This document shows positions 16,530 through 31,366 of a DNA stretch of 64,000 nt, in pieces. Source of the stretch: a virus; the IMG/VR virus record IMGVR_UViG_3300026097_001455, positions 16,862 through 80,861 of that record; one strand, 5' to 3'. The position numbers and the translations under genes are program-made. Below the pieces are notes generated by a model. It made no database searches and was not told the origin of the DNA. It was given only the letters and a program-made list of their open reading frames with translations. The first letter of the stretch is position 1; each line of letters begins with the position of its first letter.

Positions 16530-17192
16530 TTATGCTTCAGGGATTGGTTCTTCACCCCCTGCTGCTGGCTCCTGTGGCTCTGGTTCTTTATCAACTGGGT
16601 CACCTCCAGGTTTTCCTGGAATTATAGTGAGCTTTTCTCTCCAATCTTTTTGCCAAGCATCATAATGGCTATAGAGTTTCTCTACTAATCTTTTATTACC
16701 AGAAGTAACCAAAAGGTCTTCGGTGTTTATAACAAGACCGTCTTTTAGAGAATAAGCCCAGCTTAGAGTTCCTTCTCTTCCCATTTTAATTTGTCCAGAT
16801 GCTCCAGCCTCAATTCCATCTTGTCCTACAGACATCTTAAGAGAGTATCCATTAGATTGCGTATCAAATACAACAGAAGCGCCATCAACCTCTTGAAGCA
16901 TTTGTTCGAAAGAGTTTTCAAACTCAGCTATTTCAGAAGACGTGATCTGTGGAATTCCGCTACCGTAGCTTTCTCTTATTGTTGTAGAAATAAGTTTATT
17001 TCCGTTCTTGTCTTCTTCTGGCTTATCTCCTCCGTAAAAAACAGCATATTCAAGCTCTTCTTCAGACAACCCCTTTGGCTTAAAGGTTCTGCTTCTAGCT
17101 TTCTTTTTTTTCTGAGCGCTATCTTTAAGAGTTTCAAAAGCAAGAGACTGAATCTCCTGTCTGATCATTTCTAATAAATCGTTTCTAGTCAT
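16530..17192 (-). CDS. Hypothetical protein, probably head-associated
   Basis: N-terminal LLEMIRQEI helix. Confidence 0.7.
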   Translation of the reverse strand: MTRNDLLEMIRQEIQSLAFETLKDSAQKKKKARSRTFKPKGLSEEELEYAVFYGGDKPEEDKNGNKLISTTIRESYGSGIPQITSSEIAEFENSFEQMLQEVDGASVVFDTQSNGYSLKMSVGQDGIEAGASGQIKMGREGTLSWAYSLKDGLVINTEDLLVTSGNKRLVEKLYSHYDAWQKDWREKLTIIPGKPGGDPVDKEPEPQEPAAGGEEPIPEA

Positions 17193-17193
17193 A

Positions 17194-17418
17194 TTAAATC
17201 TGGTTTATCCACATGCCTTTCTTTTCCCACATCCACCTGTGATACTTAAGCATGGTTTTTTTAATTAAGTCTTTGACTTCTTTACTGGTCATGACGTCCT
17301 TAACAGCTTTCTCAGCTTCATCTTGAGCTATTTTTTTAACATCCTTATCATCAGGCATGTTTCTCAACTCGCTCTTAAGAACATCTTTCACTATACTCCT
17401 AACCTCTTTCTTGGTCAT
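17194..17418 (-). CDS. Small hypothetical protein
   Basis: EVRSIVKDVL N-terminus; Trp-rich C-terminus. Confidence 0.7.
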   Translation of the reverse strand: MTKKEVRSIVKDVLKSELRNMPDDKDVKKIAQDEAEKAVKDVMTSKEVKDLIKKTMLKYHRWMWEKKGMWINQI

Positions 17419-18323
17419 TACTCATTAATTTTTTCTTTAACTCGGTTAAGCATTTCAAAAAGTCTTTCATCTGGATAGGTGTCCTGCTTATCTCTTCTTA
17501 TGCTTGTATGGCTCCAGATACCTGGGGTTTTGTTCTTATATAAGTCCTGACTGTATTCGAGCCACTCTCTATCGAATTCGATATTTTGTACTGGTATTTT
17601 GTATTCCTTAACCATCCAAATAATAAGCTTTTCAAGAGATTTTATTTGCTTGTCAGAATACTTGTGGTAATACTTATCACCTCTCCACTTATCTTCAAGC
17701 GTGTATACTTCGTCTTCTGGAACCTGTCCTCCATAAACGTTATAGAACTTATCTCCTTTTTTAGTAAGTCTTCCCCAGGCGCAAATCTCAACACCTATTG
17801 AATGCTTATCAAGCTTACCTTTAGTTCCTTTTGCTCCAAGATGGTAACTCCAATAGTCTGGATTGTGAGCTTCATATACCTTTCCATCTTCTTCTCCTCT
17901 ACCACTTATTACAAATGCGGTAGCAATTCTTGGAGCGTTTCCGTCCCAGTATTTAATAACTCTCTTAGCATCAGGTCCACTTACTGTGTAGTGTATGAAA
18001 ATCTTATCTTTATCAAATACTTGCTTAATATATTGCTCTGGACCCATGTGATGATCTGCATCAACATCTAATCCTGGATAGTCTTTTGATCTGCTAGAAT
18101 CTTTATCTTCCTTTGAAGTTCTTTTTTGAGCAGCTTTAAGAGCAGCAAAAGTTTTAGGACCAGCAATTCCATCTACTACAAGTCCATACTTCTTCTGAAA
18201 TGCTTTAAGTGACCTCAAAGTTTTCGGCCCTAGATCGCCATCAATTACAAGATCATACCCTAACATGGATAATAATTTTTGTAACTTAGATACCTCTGCG
18301 CCTTTGTCTCCCAATGTAACCAT
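17418..18323 (-). CDS. Endolysin: peptidoglycan-binding domain plus N-acetylmuramoyl-L-alanine amidase (Amidase_2)
   Basis: LGDKGAEVSKLQ...FQKKYGLVVDGIAGPKT; IFIHYT, SIGVEI, WSHTSIRRDKQD Zn-amidase motifs. Confidence 0.9.
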   Translation of the reverse strand: MVTLGDKGAEVSKLQKLLSMLGYDLVIDGDLGPKTLRSLKAFQKKYGLVVDGIAGPKTFAALKAAQKRTSKEDKDSSRSKDYPGLDVDADHHMGPEQYIKQVFDKDKIFIHYTVSGPDAKRVIKYWDGNAPRIATAFVISGRGEEDGKVYEAHNPDYWSYHLGAKGTKGKLDKHSIGVEICAWGRLTKKGDKFYNVYGGQVPEDEVYTLEDKWRGDKYYHKYSDKQIKSLEKLIIWMVKEYKIPVQNIEFDREWLEYSQDLYKNKTPGIWSHTSIRRDKQDTYPDERLFEMLNRVKEKINE

Positions 18324-24626: not shown

Positions 24627-25343
24627 ATGAACCAGATCAGTGAGGCACATATTAGAAAAATAATAAGAGATGTCATATCAGAATCTCTAATTACAGAAAT
24701 TTCTGCTGAAGAAAAATCTAAGGTAATGGGAAAGAGTAACGAAAGAGTTCCTTTCTCAACCGAACTGATGAAACAAGCTATTCAACAAGGTCGTGAAGTA
24801 GGGATTAACTTCCAATCTAACAACACCAAGTATAAAATGCCTACTGTTAAGGCTAGGATAATTCACCCAGTAGCTATGGGGTATGACAGCAAAGGAAATC
24901 TTGTTATAAGAGGTCTTCATGTAACTGGTCAATCAGAAAAGGCTGCAAGAGAAACTGGAATTAGGAGTGCTGAGGTTGAAGCTGAAAAGGATGGAATGAA
25001 CGCTTGGAGGCTTTTTAGGTCAGATAATTTAAGGTCAATGTGGTTTACCGATAGGTTCTTTAGTGATAGCATACCAGGATACAATCCAAATGATAGCGCT
25101 ATGTCTTCAGTAATAGCTTCATACGACCCAGGGGCAGCTAAGAAATACCAAGACAATCTTGTTACAGGGGAGCCAGAACAACAGCAGCCAGAGCAGCCCC
25201 AACAAACACAAGCACAAGCACAACAACAACAACAGTCAGAGCCTGAAATGCAAAAAAGGCCCCCAGTAACTAAGGACCTTGATCAAATGGATTATGAAGA
25301 TCAGCCAGTTCAAGAAAAGAAGGTTAGAAGCCTATTTAAGTAG
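24627..25343 (+). CDS. WYL-like domain protein
   Basis: ARIIHPVAMG...IRGLH...WRLFRSDNL; Q-rich tail. Confidence 0.65.
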   Translation: MNQISEAHIRKIIRDVISESLITEISAEEKSKVMGKSNERVPFSTELMKQAIQQGREVGINFQSNNTKYKMPTVKARIIHPVAMGYDSKGNLVIRGLHVTGQSEKAARETGIRSAEVEAEKDGMNAWRLFRSDNLRSMWFTDRFFSDSIPGYNPNDSAMSSVIASYDPGAAKKYQDNLVTGEPEQQQPEQPQQTQAQAQQQQQSEPEMQKRPPVTKDLDQMDYEDQPVQEKKVRSLFK

Positions 25344-25361
25344 TTGCCACATTAAAACGTG

Positions 25362-25413
25362 GCATAACAGCCGATAAAATTGCATTGAAACGCATTTTAT
25401 CTTGGTGTTAGGC
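25362..25413 (-). mobile_element. attC-like recombination site (52 bp)
   Basis: Minus strand GCCTAAC...GTTATGC (RYYYAAC / GTT-core) enclosing an imperfect palindrome with bulges (gataaaa/ttttatc, tgc/gca); the cassette ORF stop TAA lies inside GCCTAAC. Confidence 0.7.
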
Positions 25414-25626
25414 GTAATTTATAGCCTTCTTCAACTGTCTTAATACCCTTTTGCAATGTTTTTTATCTTCACCTTCGTTATTCCACACAAGAAACTCATA
25501 AGTGCTTATCATCCCCTCAATATCTTCATCTCTTAGGATAACTTTTGTGTGAGAAAAACTACGCCTAACAACAGGTATAGTTAATTCCTGTTCTGTGCTT
25601 GTTTCTAAGTTCTGTTCTTTTTTCAT
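25408..25626 (-). CDS. Small gene-cassette ORF
   Basis: 72 aa; starts inside one attC-like site and stops inside the other. Confidence 0.65.
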   Translation of the reverse strand: MKKEQNLETSTEQELTIPVVRRSFSHTKVILRDEDIEGMISTYEFLVWNNEGEDKKHCKRVLRQLKKAINYA

Positions 25627-25691
25627 CGTTATATCTATTTTGAAAGTTTTGTAATTCTATTCAGGCACTAACCATACCCAAAACGTTATAC
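25563..25691 (-). mobile_element. attC-like recombination site (129 bp)
   Basis: Minus strand GTATAAC-gttttg-ggtatggttagtgcctg...caggaattaactatacc-tgtt-GTTAGGC; the upstream gene's stop lies inside GTATAAC. Confidence 0.65.
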
Positions 25692-26345
25692 ATCATTTTT
25701 TGGAGCATAATACTTCCCACGAATTTTAACACCCTCTTTTATGAAGCCATCTTTGGATTTATAGTTTTGTTTTGATAGGAGAACCATGCCTTTGGTTTTT
25801 ATCTCTATTTCTTCTAGCTTTTTATTTGACTCCTTAAGTATTTTATCCGCCTTTTCCTTGAGGCTATGTAAACTAATAGATGTGTGAGATTTTCTTTTCC
25901 ATTCTTCAACTAATATTTCATCACCTAGTATAAAAAGATGGAATAGATTAATTCCTCTACTTATTCTAAACACCGTCTTATCATTGTAGATGCCCTCATG
26001 TCTTATCCCCTTCTCATCTGGATTTTCCCAGTCTACCATGAATCTTGATTCGATAGCTTCTTTAATATCTTCTTTTCTTTCCTCTTTTTTCTGATCAGAC
26101 TCAAGCCTTCTGAGTTTGGACTTAATTCTATTCTGTGCCTCCTGCTTAAGTTTTTCTTGCTTAAGCTTAGCCTCTCTTTCGCCTTGCCTCTCATTCTTTT
26201 GCTTAGACTCCTTGATGGCTTTCATGGCCTCTCTAGCCAGTTCATCAATAGACTTTTCTGGCTGCTCTGAATCCCTGATCTCTCTAGCTAGATCATCAAT
26301 GGTCTTTTGAGACTCTGAATCTTTTTTATTTCCTTCCTCTGCCAT
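25686..26345 (-). CDS. Charged coiled-coil hypothetical protein
   Basis: 219 aa; KTIDDLARE/KSIDELARE repeat. Confidence 0.7.
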   Translation of the reverse strand: MAEEGNKKDSESQKTIDDLAREIRDSEQPEKSIDELAREAMKAIKESKQKNERQGEREAKLKQEKLKQEAQNRIKSKLRRLESDQKKEERKEDIKEAIESRFMVDWENPDEKGIRHEGIYNDKTVFRISRGINLFHLFILGDEILVEEWKRKSHTSISLHSLKEKADKILKESNKKLEEIEIKTKGMVLLSKQNYKSKDGFIKEGVKIRGKYYAPKNDV

Positions 26346-29300
26346 TATGTTATTGTAATCTTAGAAATACCCGCTTTAGGGTTGTTTTCAACGACTTCTG
26401 GCTCTAATCCATCTGTTACCTTGGTAACCTCTATGATGTTGTCCGAGAAGTCCTTTATTTCGTTCCTGTGCGTAATTATAAGCACGTTCTTATACTTATT
26501 TCTTAAATAGTTCAAAATATTGACTACACCCATGGTAAGTTCATCATCAAGTGTCCCGAAACCTTCGTCTATAATTCTAACAGTAGGCTTTGTAAGTCGG
26601 CTCATATACCTCAGCGCCTCTGTAATTACGATTGAAGCTATAAACTTTTGTGAGCCAGATGCAGATGTCAATGGAAGCGTGTCTCCTTTGTCATCGCTAA
26701 AATAGAATGTCTCAACAATATCTCCGTTCTGCTGTATGTCAAGATCAATTTTAAAGTCAACTACCTCTTGAAGTATTGAGTTAATTTTTGAATTAATAAT
26801 AGGAAGCTTTCTTCTTATAATAGAAGCTGGTATTCCATCTCTATGTACAGCTTGTAAATAAATAGAGTATTTCTTATACAGCCTTTCAGAATTGTTTATC
26901 TGACTAAGTTTGTCATCATAGTTTTCTCTATTATTCTCAAGAACTTTAAGCTCACCATAGCACTTGTTTATGTTCTTATCCAGGTTAAACACTGTAAGCT
27001 TGTAAGACTTGTACACCCTAGTCTTTTCATCTACCTGTTCTTGAATCTCTTTGTTTCTCTTTATCTTCCCGATGTTCTCATCAAACTTGCTTATCTTAGC
27101 CTCAAGGTCAGATATTAACTTCTCATTAGCACTAACCTCTTTGTTCTTGGTAGAGAGTTTTTTGCTATTGATGTCAACCTCATTGTTATGATCAATAATG
27201 TCTTGAGAGTTTTCTATGAGGTTGATCTTATCTTTAAGAATCTTAAGTGACTCACGCTTCACTGATATAGATTCTTCAGCTATATCAAGCTGGTTTTTCT
27301 CGTTGTCTACAGTAGTGTTGTGCGCTATAATAGCATCATTCTCCTTAATTCTTCTTTCCTTGTAATCAACAAGTCCTTGCTTCATTTCAATCTCTTCTAA
27401 GCATTCCACCTCCTTTTCTGGGTCTGGCTTATGTTCTACATGTCCGCATGTTGGGCAGCACTTGCCTTGATATGTTGGTAGCTTGGCGTTTAAGTTGGTT
27501 ATTTCTCCTTTAAGCTCTTTTATCTGATCTTCGAAATTAGATACTTCAAGCTCTGAATTCTTAGGGTTGGTGTTAAGCCAGTCTTTCTTTGTTCTAATTT
27601 TATTCTCAAGACCATTAACTGTTTTTTGCTGTTCTGATAATTGAGATTTAAGCGAACTTATACTAACGCCCTTATCAAAAGGAAGTTCCTTCTTAAAGTT
27701 TTTGTCAAGCCATTTTTCAAGATTTCCAATAACTACCTTGTCACTTTCAATAGATTCTTTGATGGACTCTATTTTCTTAACTGCGGCATCTCTGTCTGTA
27801 ATTCCAGGGTCTTCAACTTTGTCAATTTTCTTATTAAGCTCAATGATCTCATCGTTTGTATCATTCTGCTTTATGAGCATCATGTCTTTCTCTTCCTCAA
27901 AAGACTTTAGCTCCTCTTTCTTTTCTTTGATTTCAGAGTCGATTTCTTTGATCTTATTCTCAATCTCTATAGCATTACCAAGGTCTTTCTGCTTACGCTT
28001 AACATCATTAAAAAAAGTCTTTCCATACTCATGCCTATCCTTGTATGGCTCAAGACCAAGAAATCTACTTATAAGAGCATTTTTTGGCTGCTGCTGTTGA
28101 TTAATGTAATCACCTTTTCCACCCTGAGCCTGGAGCGATGTCTTAGTGAAGTCATCAAACGTACCGATTGCATCAAGCACAATTGACTTAACTTCTTTTT
28201 TCTCCATTGTCTTTTTATCAGAAATCTCTGGAGACCACTTCTCTCCGACAACGTTTCCGTCATCATCATACTCCTTAGCAAGTTTGTCATACTTTATTCC
28301 AAAGCTATTTTTACCTTTCTTAGTAGTTATCTTCCTGTATATTCTATACTTTTCACCATTAATAGTTAGAAAAATTTTCACATAACCCGTATCCGAATCT
28401 GTATAAATATTTACAAGGTATTTTGAAGTGCTTCGATTTCCACCAAGCATTTCTTCATATAACCCCCATACAATAGCTTTGATCACATTTGACTTACCAT
28501 TAAAGTTCTTTCCAAATATTCCAGTAAGTCCCCCAACCTTATCAAAATCTATTTTTAAAGGCTTTTTGTCAAATGAAAGTATGTTACTTATTTCTATTGA
28601 GTTAAGGTCCCAGTCACTCATATGTCTTGATGAGGATTCATTGATTTCAAGAGTTTCGTCTACATGTCTTGCAAACTCCATAAGCTCCTTCATGAGATCA
28701 TCATCAACCTCAAAATCTCCATCTTCTATCCACTCCTTGAAAAGGTCTTCAAAAACTTGTTCCTGCTCTTCATCTTCTTGGAGTTCTGCAACATCCCTTA
28801 TTATTTCGACAAACTCAACACGAACACTTTCGCATCCATATTTATCACGCACAAGTCTCTTAATCTGATTTTCCTTCTCAATAGAGTAGTTCTCTTCATA
28901 ATCTTCCCAAGTGATATATACCTTTGTTTTTCTCTTGTTATTACTAAACTTAACGTATTCAATCCTTTCGTCAACATCCTCGCCTTTTGCGATGTCTATT
29001 TTAGCAAACCCATAATCATTTAGAACAAACTTTCTCTCGTGAGTACAGTTATCTAAATCCCACAGAAGGTATCCTTTATCAATAGATTCTCCAAAGTTCT
29101 GCTGAATTAAAGAGCCTGCATAAGCTACTGTATCATCATCTCTGAATGTCTGGTATTCATGAATATCTCCAAGCATAACAACATCAAAATTGTTAAAGGT
29201 GCTTAGTCTCATTAGGTTATCACCCTGCATTTGGTATCCATTATCTCCTCTAGCTCCGTAAACAGTGCCATGATACATTGCTACATACTTTTTTCCTGGC

Positions 29301-29788
29301 TCCTTTTTTTCTAAAGTTAGAATTTCATTATCCTTGCAAGAATAAACTCCGTAAACGAGATTGTCACTGATTTCATAGAATCCTGAATCTGGATAATAAT
29401 ATACAGCTTTCTTACTAAAGTCTATACTATCCTTGTTTTCGTTTGTAACAACCACAGCCTTTCTGTTACCTGAATCTTCCAGTAAGTTTGCTAGATTGAA
29501 TATTGGGGATATTGCGTCACCCTGCTCAAGCTGTTGAAGATTGAGATCATGATTGCCTAAAATAACATCTGTTGGGGCTATGTCAGAAAGTTTAATGAAT
29601 AGCTCTGCTAATAAGCTAAAAGAATTTGGTGACATATTAATCTTGTGGTGAACAAGGTCTCCTGCTAAATAGATTCTATCTGGCTTTTGTTTTTTAAGGT
29701 CTTCATAAAGTCTTTCAAATACTTGTCTGTATTCATCATGCCTTGTTCCAAACCTAATCTGTATATCTGCTAAGTGGGCTATTTTCAT
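26345..29788 (-). CDS. Fused SbcD/Mre11 nuclease and SbcC/Rad50 ATPase (gp47+gp46-like)
   Basis: HLADIQ, AGDLVH, LGNHD, MYHG, LGDIH phosphoesterase motifs; Walker A GKNFNGKS; Zn hook CPTCG; ASGSQK signature; IIDEGFGTLD; ITH. Confidence 0.92.
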   Translation of the reverse strand: MKIAHLADIQIRFGTRHDEYRQVFERLYEDLKKQKPDRIYLAGDLVHHKINMSPNSFSLLAELFIKLSDIAPTDVILGNHDLNLQQLEQGDAISPIFNLANLLEDSGNRKAVVVTNENKDSIDFSKKAVYYYPDSGFYEISDNLVYGVYSCKDNEILTLEKKEPGKKYVAMYHGTVYGARGDNGYQMQGDNLMRLSTFNNFDVVMLGDIHEYQTFRDDDTVAYAGSLIQQNFGESIDKGYLLWDLDNCTHERKFVLNDYGFAKIDIAKGEDVDERIEYVKFSNNKRKTKVYITWEDYEENYSIEKENQIKRLVRDKYGCESVRVEFVEIIRDVAELQEDEEQEQVFEDLFKEWIEDGDFEVDDDLMKELMEFARHVDETLEINESSSRHMSDWDLNSIEISNILSFDKKPLKIDFDKVGGLTGIFGKNFNGKSNVIKAIVWGLYEEMLGGNRSTSKYLVNIYTDSDTGYVKIFLTINGEKYRIYRKITTKKGKNSFGIKYDKLAKEYDDDGNVVGEKWSPEISDKKTMEKKEVKSIVLDAIGTFDDFTKTSLQAQGGKGDYINQQQQPKNALISRFLGLEPYKDRHEYGKTFFNDVKRKQKDLGNAIEIENKIKEIDSEIKEKKEELKSFEEEKDMMLIKQNDTNDEIIELNKKIDKVEDPGITDRDAAVKKIESIKESIESDKVVIGNLEKWLDKNFKKELPFDKGVSISSLKSQLSEQQKTVNGLENKIRTKKDWLNTNPKNSELEVSNFEDQIKELKGEITNLNAKLPTYQGKCCPTCGHVEHKPDPEKEVECLEEIEMKQGLVDYKERRIKENDAIIAHNTTVDNEKNQLDIAEESISVKRESLKILKDKINLIENSQDIIDHNNEVDINSKKLSTKNKEVSANEKLISDLEAKISKFDENIGKIKRNKEIQEQVDEKTRVYKSYKLTVFNLDKNINKCYGELKVLENNRENYDDKLSQINNSERLYKKYSIYLQAVHRDGIPASIIRRKLPIINSKINSILQEVVDFKIDLDIQQNGDIVETFYFSDDKGDTLPLTSASGSQKFIASIVITEALRYMSRLTKPTVRIIDEGFGTLDDELTMGVVNILNYLRNKYKNVLIITHRNEIKDFSDNIIEVTKVTDGLEPEVVENNPKAGISKITIT

Positions 29789-30798
29789 CCTTTAAGTTTA
29801 TTTTTAATTTGAGAGGATAGGTTCATCTTTCTGACGCAACGCAGAGCTTTTGCTACTTCCTCTTTGCCGTGGTCTTCATAAATCTTTGCAATATCCTTTT
29901 GGTGGCCTGATAAATCTACAAAAAAAACGTTCAAACCTAAAGAAGAAAGTTCTTGATAGGTTTCGATAGTTTTTTTCATCGCATCTGGGTCAAAACAAAG
30001 AATTACAATTGGGTTGTGCTTAAGTAGTTGAGCTATTAAAAGTGGAGATGCTTGCTTTCCAAGTACAGGGATAGAGTTGGGTACTTGAAACATGTCAAAC
30101 ACCCCTTCTACAAGATAAACAGGTAGGTCCCAGTTAATGTTGTATTCATTAAATATGATGTCATTTTTATGAACTTCCTCACCGCTTGGCTTCATGTAAG
30201 GAATCTTAGGGTCTTTCATATAAGATCGAGCATCATAATAATTAAACCTACCAAGAGAATTCTTGGAGGGGATTATTATTCTAAACTTTCTATCTCCAGA
30301 TTCAGTGTAGCCTATTTGATATTCATCTATCACATCAAGACTTAGTTTACGCTGCTTTTTTCCGTGACCAGTAAAATACTCCCAAGCAAGATTATATAAA
30401 TTTGTATTTCTCTTTTTGCCAAGAGGCATATATCCCTCTGGGAGTTTACATGTAACAAGGTGGTGATCTGTTCTGGGCTTAGCTGCCTGCTTGCTAAATT
30501 TCTTGAGCTTATCTGGAGGGAGTATTAGTTTTAACTTATCATAATCAGCTTGGGTACCGTAATCTTTTGTAAGCTTGTACACGAAACCGTAGTATTCACA
30601 CTTCCAGCACTTAAATACTTTCTTTTTAGAATTAAATTCTAGATTGAATTTATCAACATCATGCCTACAGGTAGGAGTAGGGCAATTGAACTGCCACTGA
30701 TCTTTACTCAGCGCATCAACTTCACTCTTAGGTTTTCCAAGAAAGTTCTTTAGAACTTCGACTACCATGTAGCCCTTGTTCACTCCATCTCCATCCAT
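29785..30798 (-). CDS. DNA primase (Zn finger plus TOPRIM)
   Basis: CPTPTC...CWKC; RIIIPS; LVEGVFD; CFDPDA. Confidence 0.88.
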   Translation of the reverse strand: MDGDGVNKGYMVVEVLKNFLGKPKSEVDALSKDQWQFNCPTPTCRHDVDKFNLEFNSKKKVFKCWKCEYYGFVYKLTKDYGTQADYDKLKLILPPDKLKKFSKQAAKPRTDHHLVTCKLPEGYMPLGKKRNTNLYNLAWEYFTGHGKKQRKLSLDVIDEYQIGYTESGDRKFRIIIPSKNSLGRFNYYDARSYMKDPKIPYMKPSGEEVHKNDIIFNEYNINWDLPVYLVEGVFDMFQVPNSIPVLGKQASPLLIAQLLKHNPIVILCFDPDAMKKTIETYQELSSLGLNVFFVDLSGHQKDIAKIYEDHGKEEVAKALRCVRKMNLSSQIKNKLKG

Positions 30799-30826: not shown

Positions 30827-31366
30827 TTATCCTTCTTTTTGTTCGTTCACTACGTTGATATGACATTTTCCCACAGTGTATGCATCACACATGTCATAAT
30901 TTTCTGTAGTTAACTTATGGCTTCTAGGTCCATATTTCCAAACAATATGAGGCTCTCTGTCACGAACTATAGTCCATATCTGATGCTTGTTCTCTGCGCT
31001 TTTTCTCTTTGCCTTATACTCTGGGAAAGCTGTCTTTCTAGCTGTATTAACATTGTAATAAATAGGCTCTATTCCGAACATTTCATAAACACATGCACTG
31101 ATCATCCCGTTAAAGAAGTTTAGGATAGCTATTGTACTTGCGCTTGAATATTTTCCAGCAAACTTTTTGAGTGGTTCCTCAATTGCTATTTGCTGTACAT
31201 CAACCTCTTCAAGAAACTTCATCTTTTTCTTAAATTCAGCTAATTTTTCAAAAATACTAATTTTGTTTTTGAATTTTATATAGTTAAGTTCCAATAGCTT
31301 TTCACCTGCCTCATCAAAGAGGGCATAGCCTATACAGCTTGTAGATACATCTAGTGCTAGAATCAT
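30827..31366 (-). CDS. RuvC-like Holliday junction resolvase
   Basis: ILALDVSTSCIGYA, IAIEEP, DMCDAYTV. Confidence 0.85.
   Translation of the reverse strand: MILALDVSTSCIGYALFDEAGEKLLELNYIKFKNKISIFEKLAEFKKKMKFLEEVDVQQIAIEEPLKKFAGKYSSASTIAILNFFNGMISACVYEMFGIEPIYYNVNTARKTAFPEYKAKRKSAENKHQIWTIVRDREPHIVWKYGPRSHKLTTENYDMCDAYTVGKCHINVVNEQKEG

Follow-up and report, generated by a model that had tools for sequence, protein, structure and literature searches.

The locus described here raises the question of whether a site at which small phage genes are exchanged can also be the place where translation of the incoming gene begins. It lies in a 64,000-nucleotide stretch of viral DNA (positions 16,862 to 80,861 of the IMG/VR record IMGVR_UViG_3300026097_001455), referred to below at its full length as the window, in which a 72-aa open reading frame (ORF) on the minus strand starts within a long imperfect palindrome. 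A preliminary description of the window likened this palindrome to the attC recombination sites of integrons and proposed that it supplies its cassette gene with a start codon located in the loop and with a leader peptide read through the right arm and across the GTT core, so that any gene inserted there in frame would be produced as a chimeric protein. Direct reading of the minus-strand sequence confirms this anatomy: the ATG at 25626 is in the loop, the leader runs through the right arm, and the core and the codons after it read GTT AGG CGT. Judged from sequence comparisons, the element appears to be one of a large family of structured AAC...GTT hairpin sites that stand between the small cassettes of genes carried by phages of Flavobacteriia and of other Bacteroidota. 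We consider an integron-like cassette system, the hairpin sites of which double as translation-start modules, to be the simplest account of this family and give it a probability of about 55%, because the sites are conserved in shape, AAC and GTT are invariant, the cassette ends are complementary, the breakpoints are exact, the sites form arrays and the reading frame is fixed. The parts of the element and of the gene that follows it are listed here; class 1 is the class of sites to which the window element belongs.

25543-25691, minus strand: the whole structured element of 149 nt as matched by covariance model R1, a few flanking bases included.
25687-25685, minus strand: the 5' terminal AAC, which pairs with the GTT core and at which homology with other phages begins; it shares bases with the TAA stop codon (25688-25686) of the upstream 219-aa ORF.
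25684-25662, minus strand: the G of a conserved G.U pair, a short unpaired spacer and the 5' arm, from the RNA fold, RNAalifold and covariation.
25680-25662, minus strand: the 5' arm itself, TGGGTATGGTTAGTGCCTG, from the RNA fold, RNAalifold (15 class-1 copies) and covariation.
25661-25591, minus strand: the 71-nt loop, comprising an A-rich untranslated leader, the ATG (25626-25624) and codons 1-12.
25590-25572, minus strand: the 3' arm, CAGGAATTAACTATACCTG, which is codons 13-19 (QELTIPV), from the RNA fold and RNAalifold.
25569-25567, minus strand: the GTT core, which is the codon of Val20 and the right-hand breakpoint of the site, with TT before it and AGG CGT after it.
25566-25560, minus strand: A and N6 (GGCGTA), the first bases of the body, complementary to the body end (inverted repeat I1, 10/10 match).
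25408-25626, minus strand: the 72-aa ORF, residues 1-20 of which are the leader and residues 21 onward the body, of the MISTYEFLVWNN family.
25416-25407, minus strand: the R''-like body end, TACGCCTAAC, which includes the stop codon and is the reverse complement of 25569-25560.

The helix of the window element is a long-range one of 23 bp, formed by the sense strand and containing G.U pairs. With RNA parameters, the sense strand folds into it at a ΔG of -25.3 and a z-score of -1.77, which is equalled by 12 of 200 shuffled sequences, and the antisense strand with the same parameters does not form it. The 15 class-1 copies share 23 pairs according to RNAalifold, and one of these covaries, being GC in nine copies and UA in six; the window copy carries one G-A mismatch at a position where 13 of 15 relatives pair G-C. 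The loop sequence itself is also kept among the class-1 copies, and the synonymous positions of the 3' arm are nearly invariant across all 15. Five related elements were folded with DNA parameters, and each of them has the long-range helix as its minimum-energy structure (z-scores from -0.68 to -3.06).

The covariance model R1, built from the 15 class-1 copies, found 77 elements at a threshold of E < 1e-5 in 30 sources, which are flavobacterial-phage loci, and nearly all of these elements are on the strand of the genes. The window element scores 158.1 bits (E = 6e-39); it is the sole match in the window with E < 0.5, and neither the window nor its 80.9-kb contig holds a second copy. Standard pairs fill 95.7% of the pair cells of the 77-element alignment, compared with 67.4 ± 0.8% in shuffles and 31-43% in controls with the partner slid by one to three columns. 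Double-sided changes are present in 18 of the 23 pairs and in 445 cells, where shuffles give 133.6 ± 10 such cells; the 77-row alignment was fitted to the model, which favours structure, and the margin is still very large. The structure is far above chance. All 77 elements have the AAC/GUU pairs unchanged, and 74 retain the two G.U pairs. The common shape consists of a 4-bp end helix, an asymmetric internal loop, a stem of 15+4 bp and a loop of about 10 to more than 100 nt, and of 29 elements compared, 25 fold more stably as the sense than as the antisense strand, the mean difference being 3.7 kcal/mol. The elements are found in arrays, all on the gene strand, in two jumbo-phage contigs of 266 and 362 kb (L050 and L048), with about 18 elements in 6.5 kb of the former and 10 in 4 kb of the latter, spaced 280-400 nt apart. 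An Rfam search of 25300-25800 returned chance-level matches to snoRNAs and sRNAs only (E > 5).

The leader recurs in front of many different proteins. When 1.8 kb around the site were compared by blastn with 50,697 phage records, only 25566-25678 was matched, at 82.6%, in Cellulophaga phages phi19:3 and phi13:2 (four records of two phages), where the block precedes a different, 101-aa gene and the similarity spans ...AACG to GTTGTTA and then ends. A search of IMG/VR with the leader pattern added 11 contigs, and a search of species genomes with the 5' arm added seven contigs from metagenome-assembled genomes (MAGs), mostly of Bacteroidota. What is shared is a block made up of AACG, the 5' arm, the A-rich leader, the ATG, the peptide MKKEQNL..EQAL[TN]IPVV and GTTGTTA, after which homology between class-1 copies stops; in every complete case the block is in frame with a different protein, and the junction is always after GTTGTTA. 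Compared by blastp without their first 23 residues, 17 leader-fused proteins fall into 15 groups that have no mutual similarity, only two pairs being similar (E < 0.01); an 18th fusion, in locus L037, is outside this comparison. One of the fused bodies contains an acyl-carrier-like domain (PF00550) and one resembles a membrane protein. Unrelated proteins thus carry one leader with its valine codon placed on GTT, and the suggestion made in the preliminary description that the site is an expression platform for chimeric proteins gains support from this presence of the leader on 15 unrelated groups with a fixed junction and frame, as far as sequences can tell.

The converse is true of the body of the window protein, for which 50 relatives at E <= 4.5e-9 were found among 51 candidates and 33 loci with the body gene were taken from viral and metagenome contigs; no member of this family was found among 185,579 species genomes. 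An alignment of 29 body relatives is strongly conserved from V-RRSF onward, and the preceding 2 to ~30 residues come in many unrelated versions. Most versions of the gene with other leaders keep the long-range helix with arms of different sequence, and the body relatives in which the helix is absent (L008/L009/L029, L012, L035 and L036) have quite different N-termini, so that the same N-terminus was not met apart from the palindrome. The residues between Val20 and the internal methionine are conserved with synonymous differences, and translation therefore starts upstream of that methionine (MISTYE) and not at it; the leader ATG is probably the start that is used.

The frame in which leader and body meet is itself conserved. 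An ATG in the loop, reading through GTT into an ORF, is present in 57 of the 77 elements; GTT is a codon in 50 of these 57, the frame is shifted by two in the other seven, and the third frame does not occur. The remaining 20 elements have a start codon 10-35 nt past the element, as in ordinary cassettes. A shared frame convention of this kind is what interchangeable fusion partners would need.

The bodies are delimited with similar precision. They begin with GTTA and N6, and at their other end N6 recurs as its reverse complement, with TAAC after it; the window body, for example, begins GTTAGGCGTA (25569-25560) and ends TACGCCTAAC (25416-25407). In 14 loci of this site class, which have 11 different ends, the complementarity near the stop codon is 10/10 in nine, 9/10 in four and 8/10 in one, compared with none at 10/10 and four at 9/10 in 170 mismatched control pairings; five further bodies from MAG contigs match at 10/10 four times and at 9/10 once. 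The family of the window protein has four versions of the ends, GGCGTA/TACGCC, GTAGCC/GGCTAC, TAAGCC/GGCTTA and (GTTG)TACGCA/TGCGTA(CAAC), and since each version has its own complement, the pairing of the ends is upheld by compensatory change. Integron cassettes have the same end complementarity: in the circular form, the first bases of a cassette fill out the stem of the site that belongs to it.

The breakpoints between related loci agree with these borders. Homology between relatives of the window body stops exactly after the AAC of TACGCCTAAC: the relatives are common up to ...TAAC and continue into more than 10 different sequences, some of which are sites and some not. Phages phi19:3 and phi13:2 share a block of 371 nt (99.2%) from |AACG to ...TAACGG|, L008 and L009 one of 496 nt (93.3%) that ends at ...TTATAAC|, and L006 and L017 one of 301 nt (87%) that starts near GTTA, takes in the body and the site after it, and closes at ...GTTA|; the blocks shared by L016 and L018 and by L004 and L010 both stop at ...TAAC|. 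The two jumbo phages are similar to each other in the site cores only. Blocks break at both AAC and GTT, and sites and bodies therefore assort independently. The source metagenome, examined as Logan contigs of one public DNA run that holds the stretch, fits the occurrence of the modules in several contexts in that sample, although such contigs are unable to show frequencies: contig ends and loose ends are at 25407-25410 and 25581-25585, summed depth is 33-94 across the cassette versus about 12 in the flanks, and a variant of the body, with 18 differences over 175 nt, runs on into another leader. Of the sequencing runs listed as holding the stretch, there was one of DNA and none of RNA. Two joints in these contigs, 25406>25628 and 25414>25562, were not counted, as their sides have fewer than 30 letters at 85% likeness; the latter would put two inverted repeats head to head, and such joints often come from other organisms.

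How close the elements are to integron sites may be judged from a comparison with known systems. They resemble attC in being imperfect palindromes of ~60-150 nt that keep shape over sequence, with invariant paired AAC...GTT ends, an unpaired spacer, a long stem and a variable loop, and the arrays of small one-way ORFs, in which each cassette begins with bases complementary to the inverse core that ends it, resemble those of integrons. A canonical attC is recombined as a folded bottom strand by the integron integrase; here it is the coding strand that folds better, two G.U(T) pairs being conserved in it, and no IntI accompanies the sites. Breakpoints are found at AAC as well as at GTT, so that a body is not tied to its downstream site, and the loop holds a full start region with a leader fused in frame to the cassette protein. 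The attC consensus RYYYAAC/GTTRRRY (PMC9892861) is not met in full either, as the fourth base is mostly T/A (TAAC/GTTA) and the outer bases often break the R/Y rule (GTTACCT and GTTATGT are examples). The label "attC-like" given in the preliminary description is thus borne out by the complementary ends and the exact AAC/GTT breakpoints and not by the enzyme or by the strand and G.U richness of the fold; we use it as an analogy and not as membership, because IntI is absent, the fold is that of the coding strand and rich in G.U(T), and the window copy gives only a poor fold as DNA.

Clusters of attC sites without an integrase (CALINs) were described in virulent phages, including Polaribacter phage P12002L, where IntI1 recombined one attC site into attI1 (Qi et al. 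2023, PMC9892861). P12002L carries the present family of elements between methyltransferase genes, with the end rule seen by eye in three of four bodies, so that one host group is common to the two sets of phages; the site recombined by IntI1 may be one of these elements. The main text of that paper is silent on Cellulophaga, Flavobacteria, start codons and jumbo phages (PMC9892861). We found no account of leader-encoding sites or of this family in the literature, though the tables of PMC9892861 may list a part of it. A partial precedent for the embedded start is ORF-11/ORF-18 of attI1, reported to have a ribosome-binding region and an ATG in the site and a frame that crosses the crossover point into GTTRRRY; this short ORF helps the expression of cassettes that have no start region of their own and is stopped by the cassette core, and short ORFs in attC sites are described as acting, like ORF-11/ORF-18, by translational coupling (PMC8876359). 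The likeness is in a recombination site that has its own start region and ATG and a frame crossing the crossover. The differences are that here the frame runs on, the cassette protein itself being the leader fusion, and that the attC-like sites occur throughout the array and not as a single attI. Promoter-early stem-loop (PeSL) motifs of T4-like phages, which are terminator/promoter composites associated with homologous recombination (PMC4122927), are conserved stem-loops at the borders of swapped small genes as well, a likeness of working and not of homology. They lie on either side of variable small genes in hyperplastic regions of phage genomes, where they mark exchange points, and are the closest phage analogue for exchange at such regulatory structures. 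At the level of the abstract, PeSL descriptions include no AAC/GTT ends, no complementarity of cargo ends and no embedded leader peptide.

A tyrosine recombinase is present in five of the 11 records searched and in four of the five that are complete or isolate genomes; IntI was not found, and none of the tyrosine recombinases in the records searched is one. In the two jumbo phages, a conserved protein of 267-268 aa, encoded a few kb from the arrays, combines PF00589 and PF13495 and scores best with XerA (186 bits), followed by the integron-integrase model (158) and XerC/XerD (~150), all below cut-off, and these scores make it Xer-like and not an IntI. A Xer-type tyrosine recombinase that acts on a hairpin of one strand has a parallel in CTXphi, the attP of which is a folded single strand used by XerCD, by which the whole phage genome is integrated at dif; no array of gene cassettes is involved there. 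A different tyrosine recombinase of 418-433 aa (PF00589 and PF13102), unlike the 268-aa enzyme of the jumbo phages, is encoded inside or beside the small-gene array of phi19:3 (L001, 862-2118, gp036) and phi13:2 (W02, 17372-17899), both of which are described as lytic; gp036 has a weak match to XerD only.

According to the integron-like account, the elements would be site-specific recombination sites working like integron attC: a folded single strand would be recognised by its shape, with crossover at the invariant AAC or GTT, and bodies and sites would be reshuffled between and within phages. Most sites would at the same time be portable translation-initiation modules: the loop would bring an A-rich unstructured start region, the ATG and the first 12 or so codons, and the 3' arm about eight more. 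With GTT retained as a codon, a body attached there would in every case be produced as a fusion to a leader of about 20 residues. In the window, a single site would express the 72-aa protein as the last gene of an SbcCD-like operon. The structure, its covariation, the exact boundaries of the modules, the end-complementarity rule and the frame convention are direct observations; the exchange is likely to be enzymatic and site-specific, perhaps with the coding strand as the acting strand, and with phage Xer-like tyrosine recombinases or a host enzyme as candidates. The DNA and RNA roles may well exist together, and the solitary site of the window may now serve mainly for expression. We hold the more specific proposition, that phages of Flavobacteriia have integron-like cassettes of their own, with AAC/GTT sites on the coding strand, perhaps recombined by Xer-like enzymes, and each an expression socket for small early genes, with less assurance, at slightly worse than even odds.

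Several observations weigh against this account. As DNA, the window copy forms no hairpin, neither in the 129 nt of the preliminary description on either strand (z-scores of 0.03 and -0.04) nor in the 149-nt version, which is also without the long hairpin (z-score of +0.59); its folding as RNA and not as DNA is due to several G.U pairs, and the stability of the coding strand and its G.U richness fit a function in RNA no less than one in DNA. Breakpoints at both AAC and GTT would not be expected from a canonical integron, in which exchange is confined to G|TT, and phi19:3 and phi13:2 share another block with borders away from the elements, so that ordinary mosaicism is also present. No tyrosine recombinase (PF00589) was found in the 80.9-kb contig, the completeness of which is 24% according to CheckV, or in a complete relative of 56.7 kb that has three elements. 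The 158 bits of the jumbo-phage protein with the integron-integrase model TIGR02249 compare with a cut-off of 265, and the match is split, its first stretch covering model positions 5-178 of 315.

The element could instead be purely an mRNA structure, such as a start insulator, a processing or attenuator hairpin or a stabiliser, with the bodies swapped by ordinary homologous recombination inside the conserved elements, as was proposed for PeSL (PMC4122927), and with no part for a dedicated recombinase. This is the main rival explanation, to which we give a distinctly lower probability without regarding it as remote. A helix specific to the sense strand with conserved G.U pairs, a window copy that folds under RNA parameters only, a loop that is an A-rich start region, a T-run past the 3' end in many copies, relatives with no recombinase and the PeSL precedent itself all speak for it. 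It leaves unexplained why a junction at one nucleotide and in one frame is common to 15 or more unrelated bodies, why the first 10 nt of a body are the reverse complement of its last 10 with compensatory changes, and why bodies stop exactly at AAC even where no element follows; moreover, homologous recombination requires a pre-existing fusion as a template.

If the inverted repeats are given the leading role instead, each body may be seen as a miniature mobile element that ends in inverted repeats of 10 bp and is inserted at AAC/GTT by an enzyme of the transposase-like or HUH type, in which case the hairpin sites would be either favoured targets or a second element of the same sort. Inverted repeats do bound the bodies, sequence that is not a site follows some of them, and "empty" hairpins of the form GTT-N6-loop-N6'-AAC exist between sites (as in the upstream sequence of L041), yet no target duplication was seen, and the repeats vary while staying complementary, which indicates pairing and not the recognition of a fixed end by a protein; we regard this explanation as improbable. 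Hardly any weight is left for the view that this is an ordinary small gene, that its disordered N-terminus evolves fast and that the palindrome and the borders are coincidental. The modest single-sequence fold (z-score of -1.77) and the single copy in the window would agree with it, and it is contradicted by covariation over 77 elements, by the identical leader on unrelated bodies and by the rule of complementary ends.

Five more limited interpretations were considered and dropped. A folding artefact was first suggested by the null DNA folds of the 129 nt and was abandoned after folding with RNA parameters and inspection of the relatives. A promoter in the conserved 5' part was set aside because the 5' arm pairs by covariation and no clear or convincing Bacteroidota -33/-7 motif could be seen there by eye. 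Bypass of the ribosome from the upstream stop codon to GTT, as in T4 gene 60, was given up on account of several loci that have no upstream gene or in which AAC forms no part of a stop codon. A hammerhead-like CUGA motif is not conserved, and cutting of both arms at an RNase III site would cut the ORF.

If the elements are recombination sites, they represent phage-borne gene capture in a phylum with little-studied integrons, in which the site supplies a start codon and an in-frame leader, a feature that we did not find described for integrons. This would explain the shuffling and instant expression of the many small early genes of these phages, which are likely host-takeover or anti-defence genes. 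The AAC...GTT hairpin together with the complementary ends would then provide a simple rule for delimiting cassettes in metagenomic phage contigs, and the site would be a natural portable expression element for Bacteroidota, which are not known to use Shine-Dalgarno sequences. If the role is in RNA only, the family is still a widespread, strongly covarying and unnamed phage RNA structure that encloses translation starts.

Two further features are found downstream of the body.

25409-25365, minus strand: a possible minimal downstream site, AAC-ACCAA-GATAAAAT-13 nt-ATTTTATC-GGCT-GTTA (stem I6), which is not matched by model R1 and could instead be a plain terminator between convergent genes.
25364-25345, minus strand: a hairpin, TGCCAC-GTTTTAAT-GTGGCA (I5), the loop motif of which recurs in relatives.

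The loop motif of the latter, CGTTTTAATG, is common to small hairpins with differing stems in the window (25345-25364) and in L037, L041, L045, L024 and L051, the last of which is P12002L, where it is found at 29974-30077 and 30849-30964. Its settings are the loop of an AAC...GTT site or an "empty cassette" of the form GTT-N6-loop-N6'-AAC between two sites, and the conservation of the loop suggests a protein-binding or terminator role.

The 72-aa ORF closes a run of minus-strand genes, among them a 1147-aa SbcCD-like gene and the 219-aa ORF, and the gene next after it is convergent. The 1147-aa ORF (26345-29788, minus strand), which is upstream of the cassette in the same operon, has a Mre11/SbcD-like N-terminus and is SbcC-like in the remainder, according to inspection of its translation by eye; the array of Cellulophaga phage phi13:2 is likewise adjoined by a gene annotated as an SbcC-type ATPase (PF13476). 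The convergent 238-aa ORF (24627-25343, plus strand) has a Q/P-rich tail, QQQPEQPQQTQAQAQQQQQ. Pfam, NCBIfam and PHROGs returned no family for the 72-aa, 219-aa and 238-aa proteins at the thresholds used.

A pair of genes with the products MIKENS... and MKLNRNSK... is upstream of the class-1 cassette in one of the phages phi19:3 (L001) and phi13:2 (L002) and downstream of it in the other; the 646-nt block that holds this pair is bordered by a shared A-rich untranslated leader and by a point inside the next gene, and not by AAC/GTT. The pattern TAACG-N6-13-TATG has nine matches in the window versus two expected, all on the minus strand (4899, 19627, 22480, 25673, 33902, 38067, 44142, 59110 and 63610); only the one at 25673 is the element, and the other eight may reflect coding bias. 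Finally, a stretch that resembles a tRNA T-arm, GGTTCGA(A/T)TC, is found directly beside a class-1 site or cassette in two loci, upstream of the site in L037 and downstream of the body in L046, which suggests that tRNA genes are next to the locus there.

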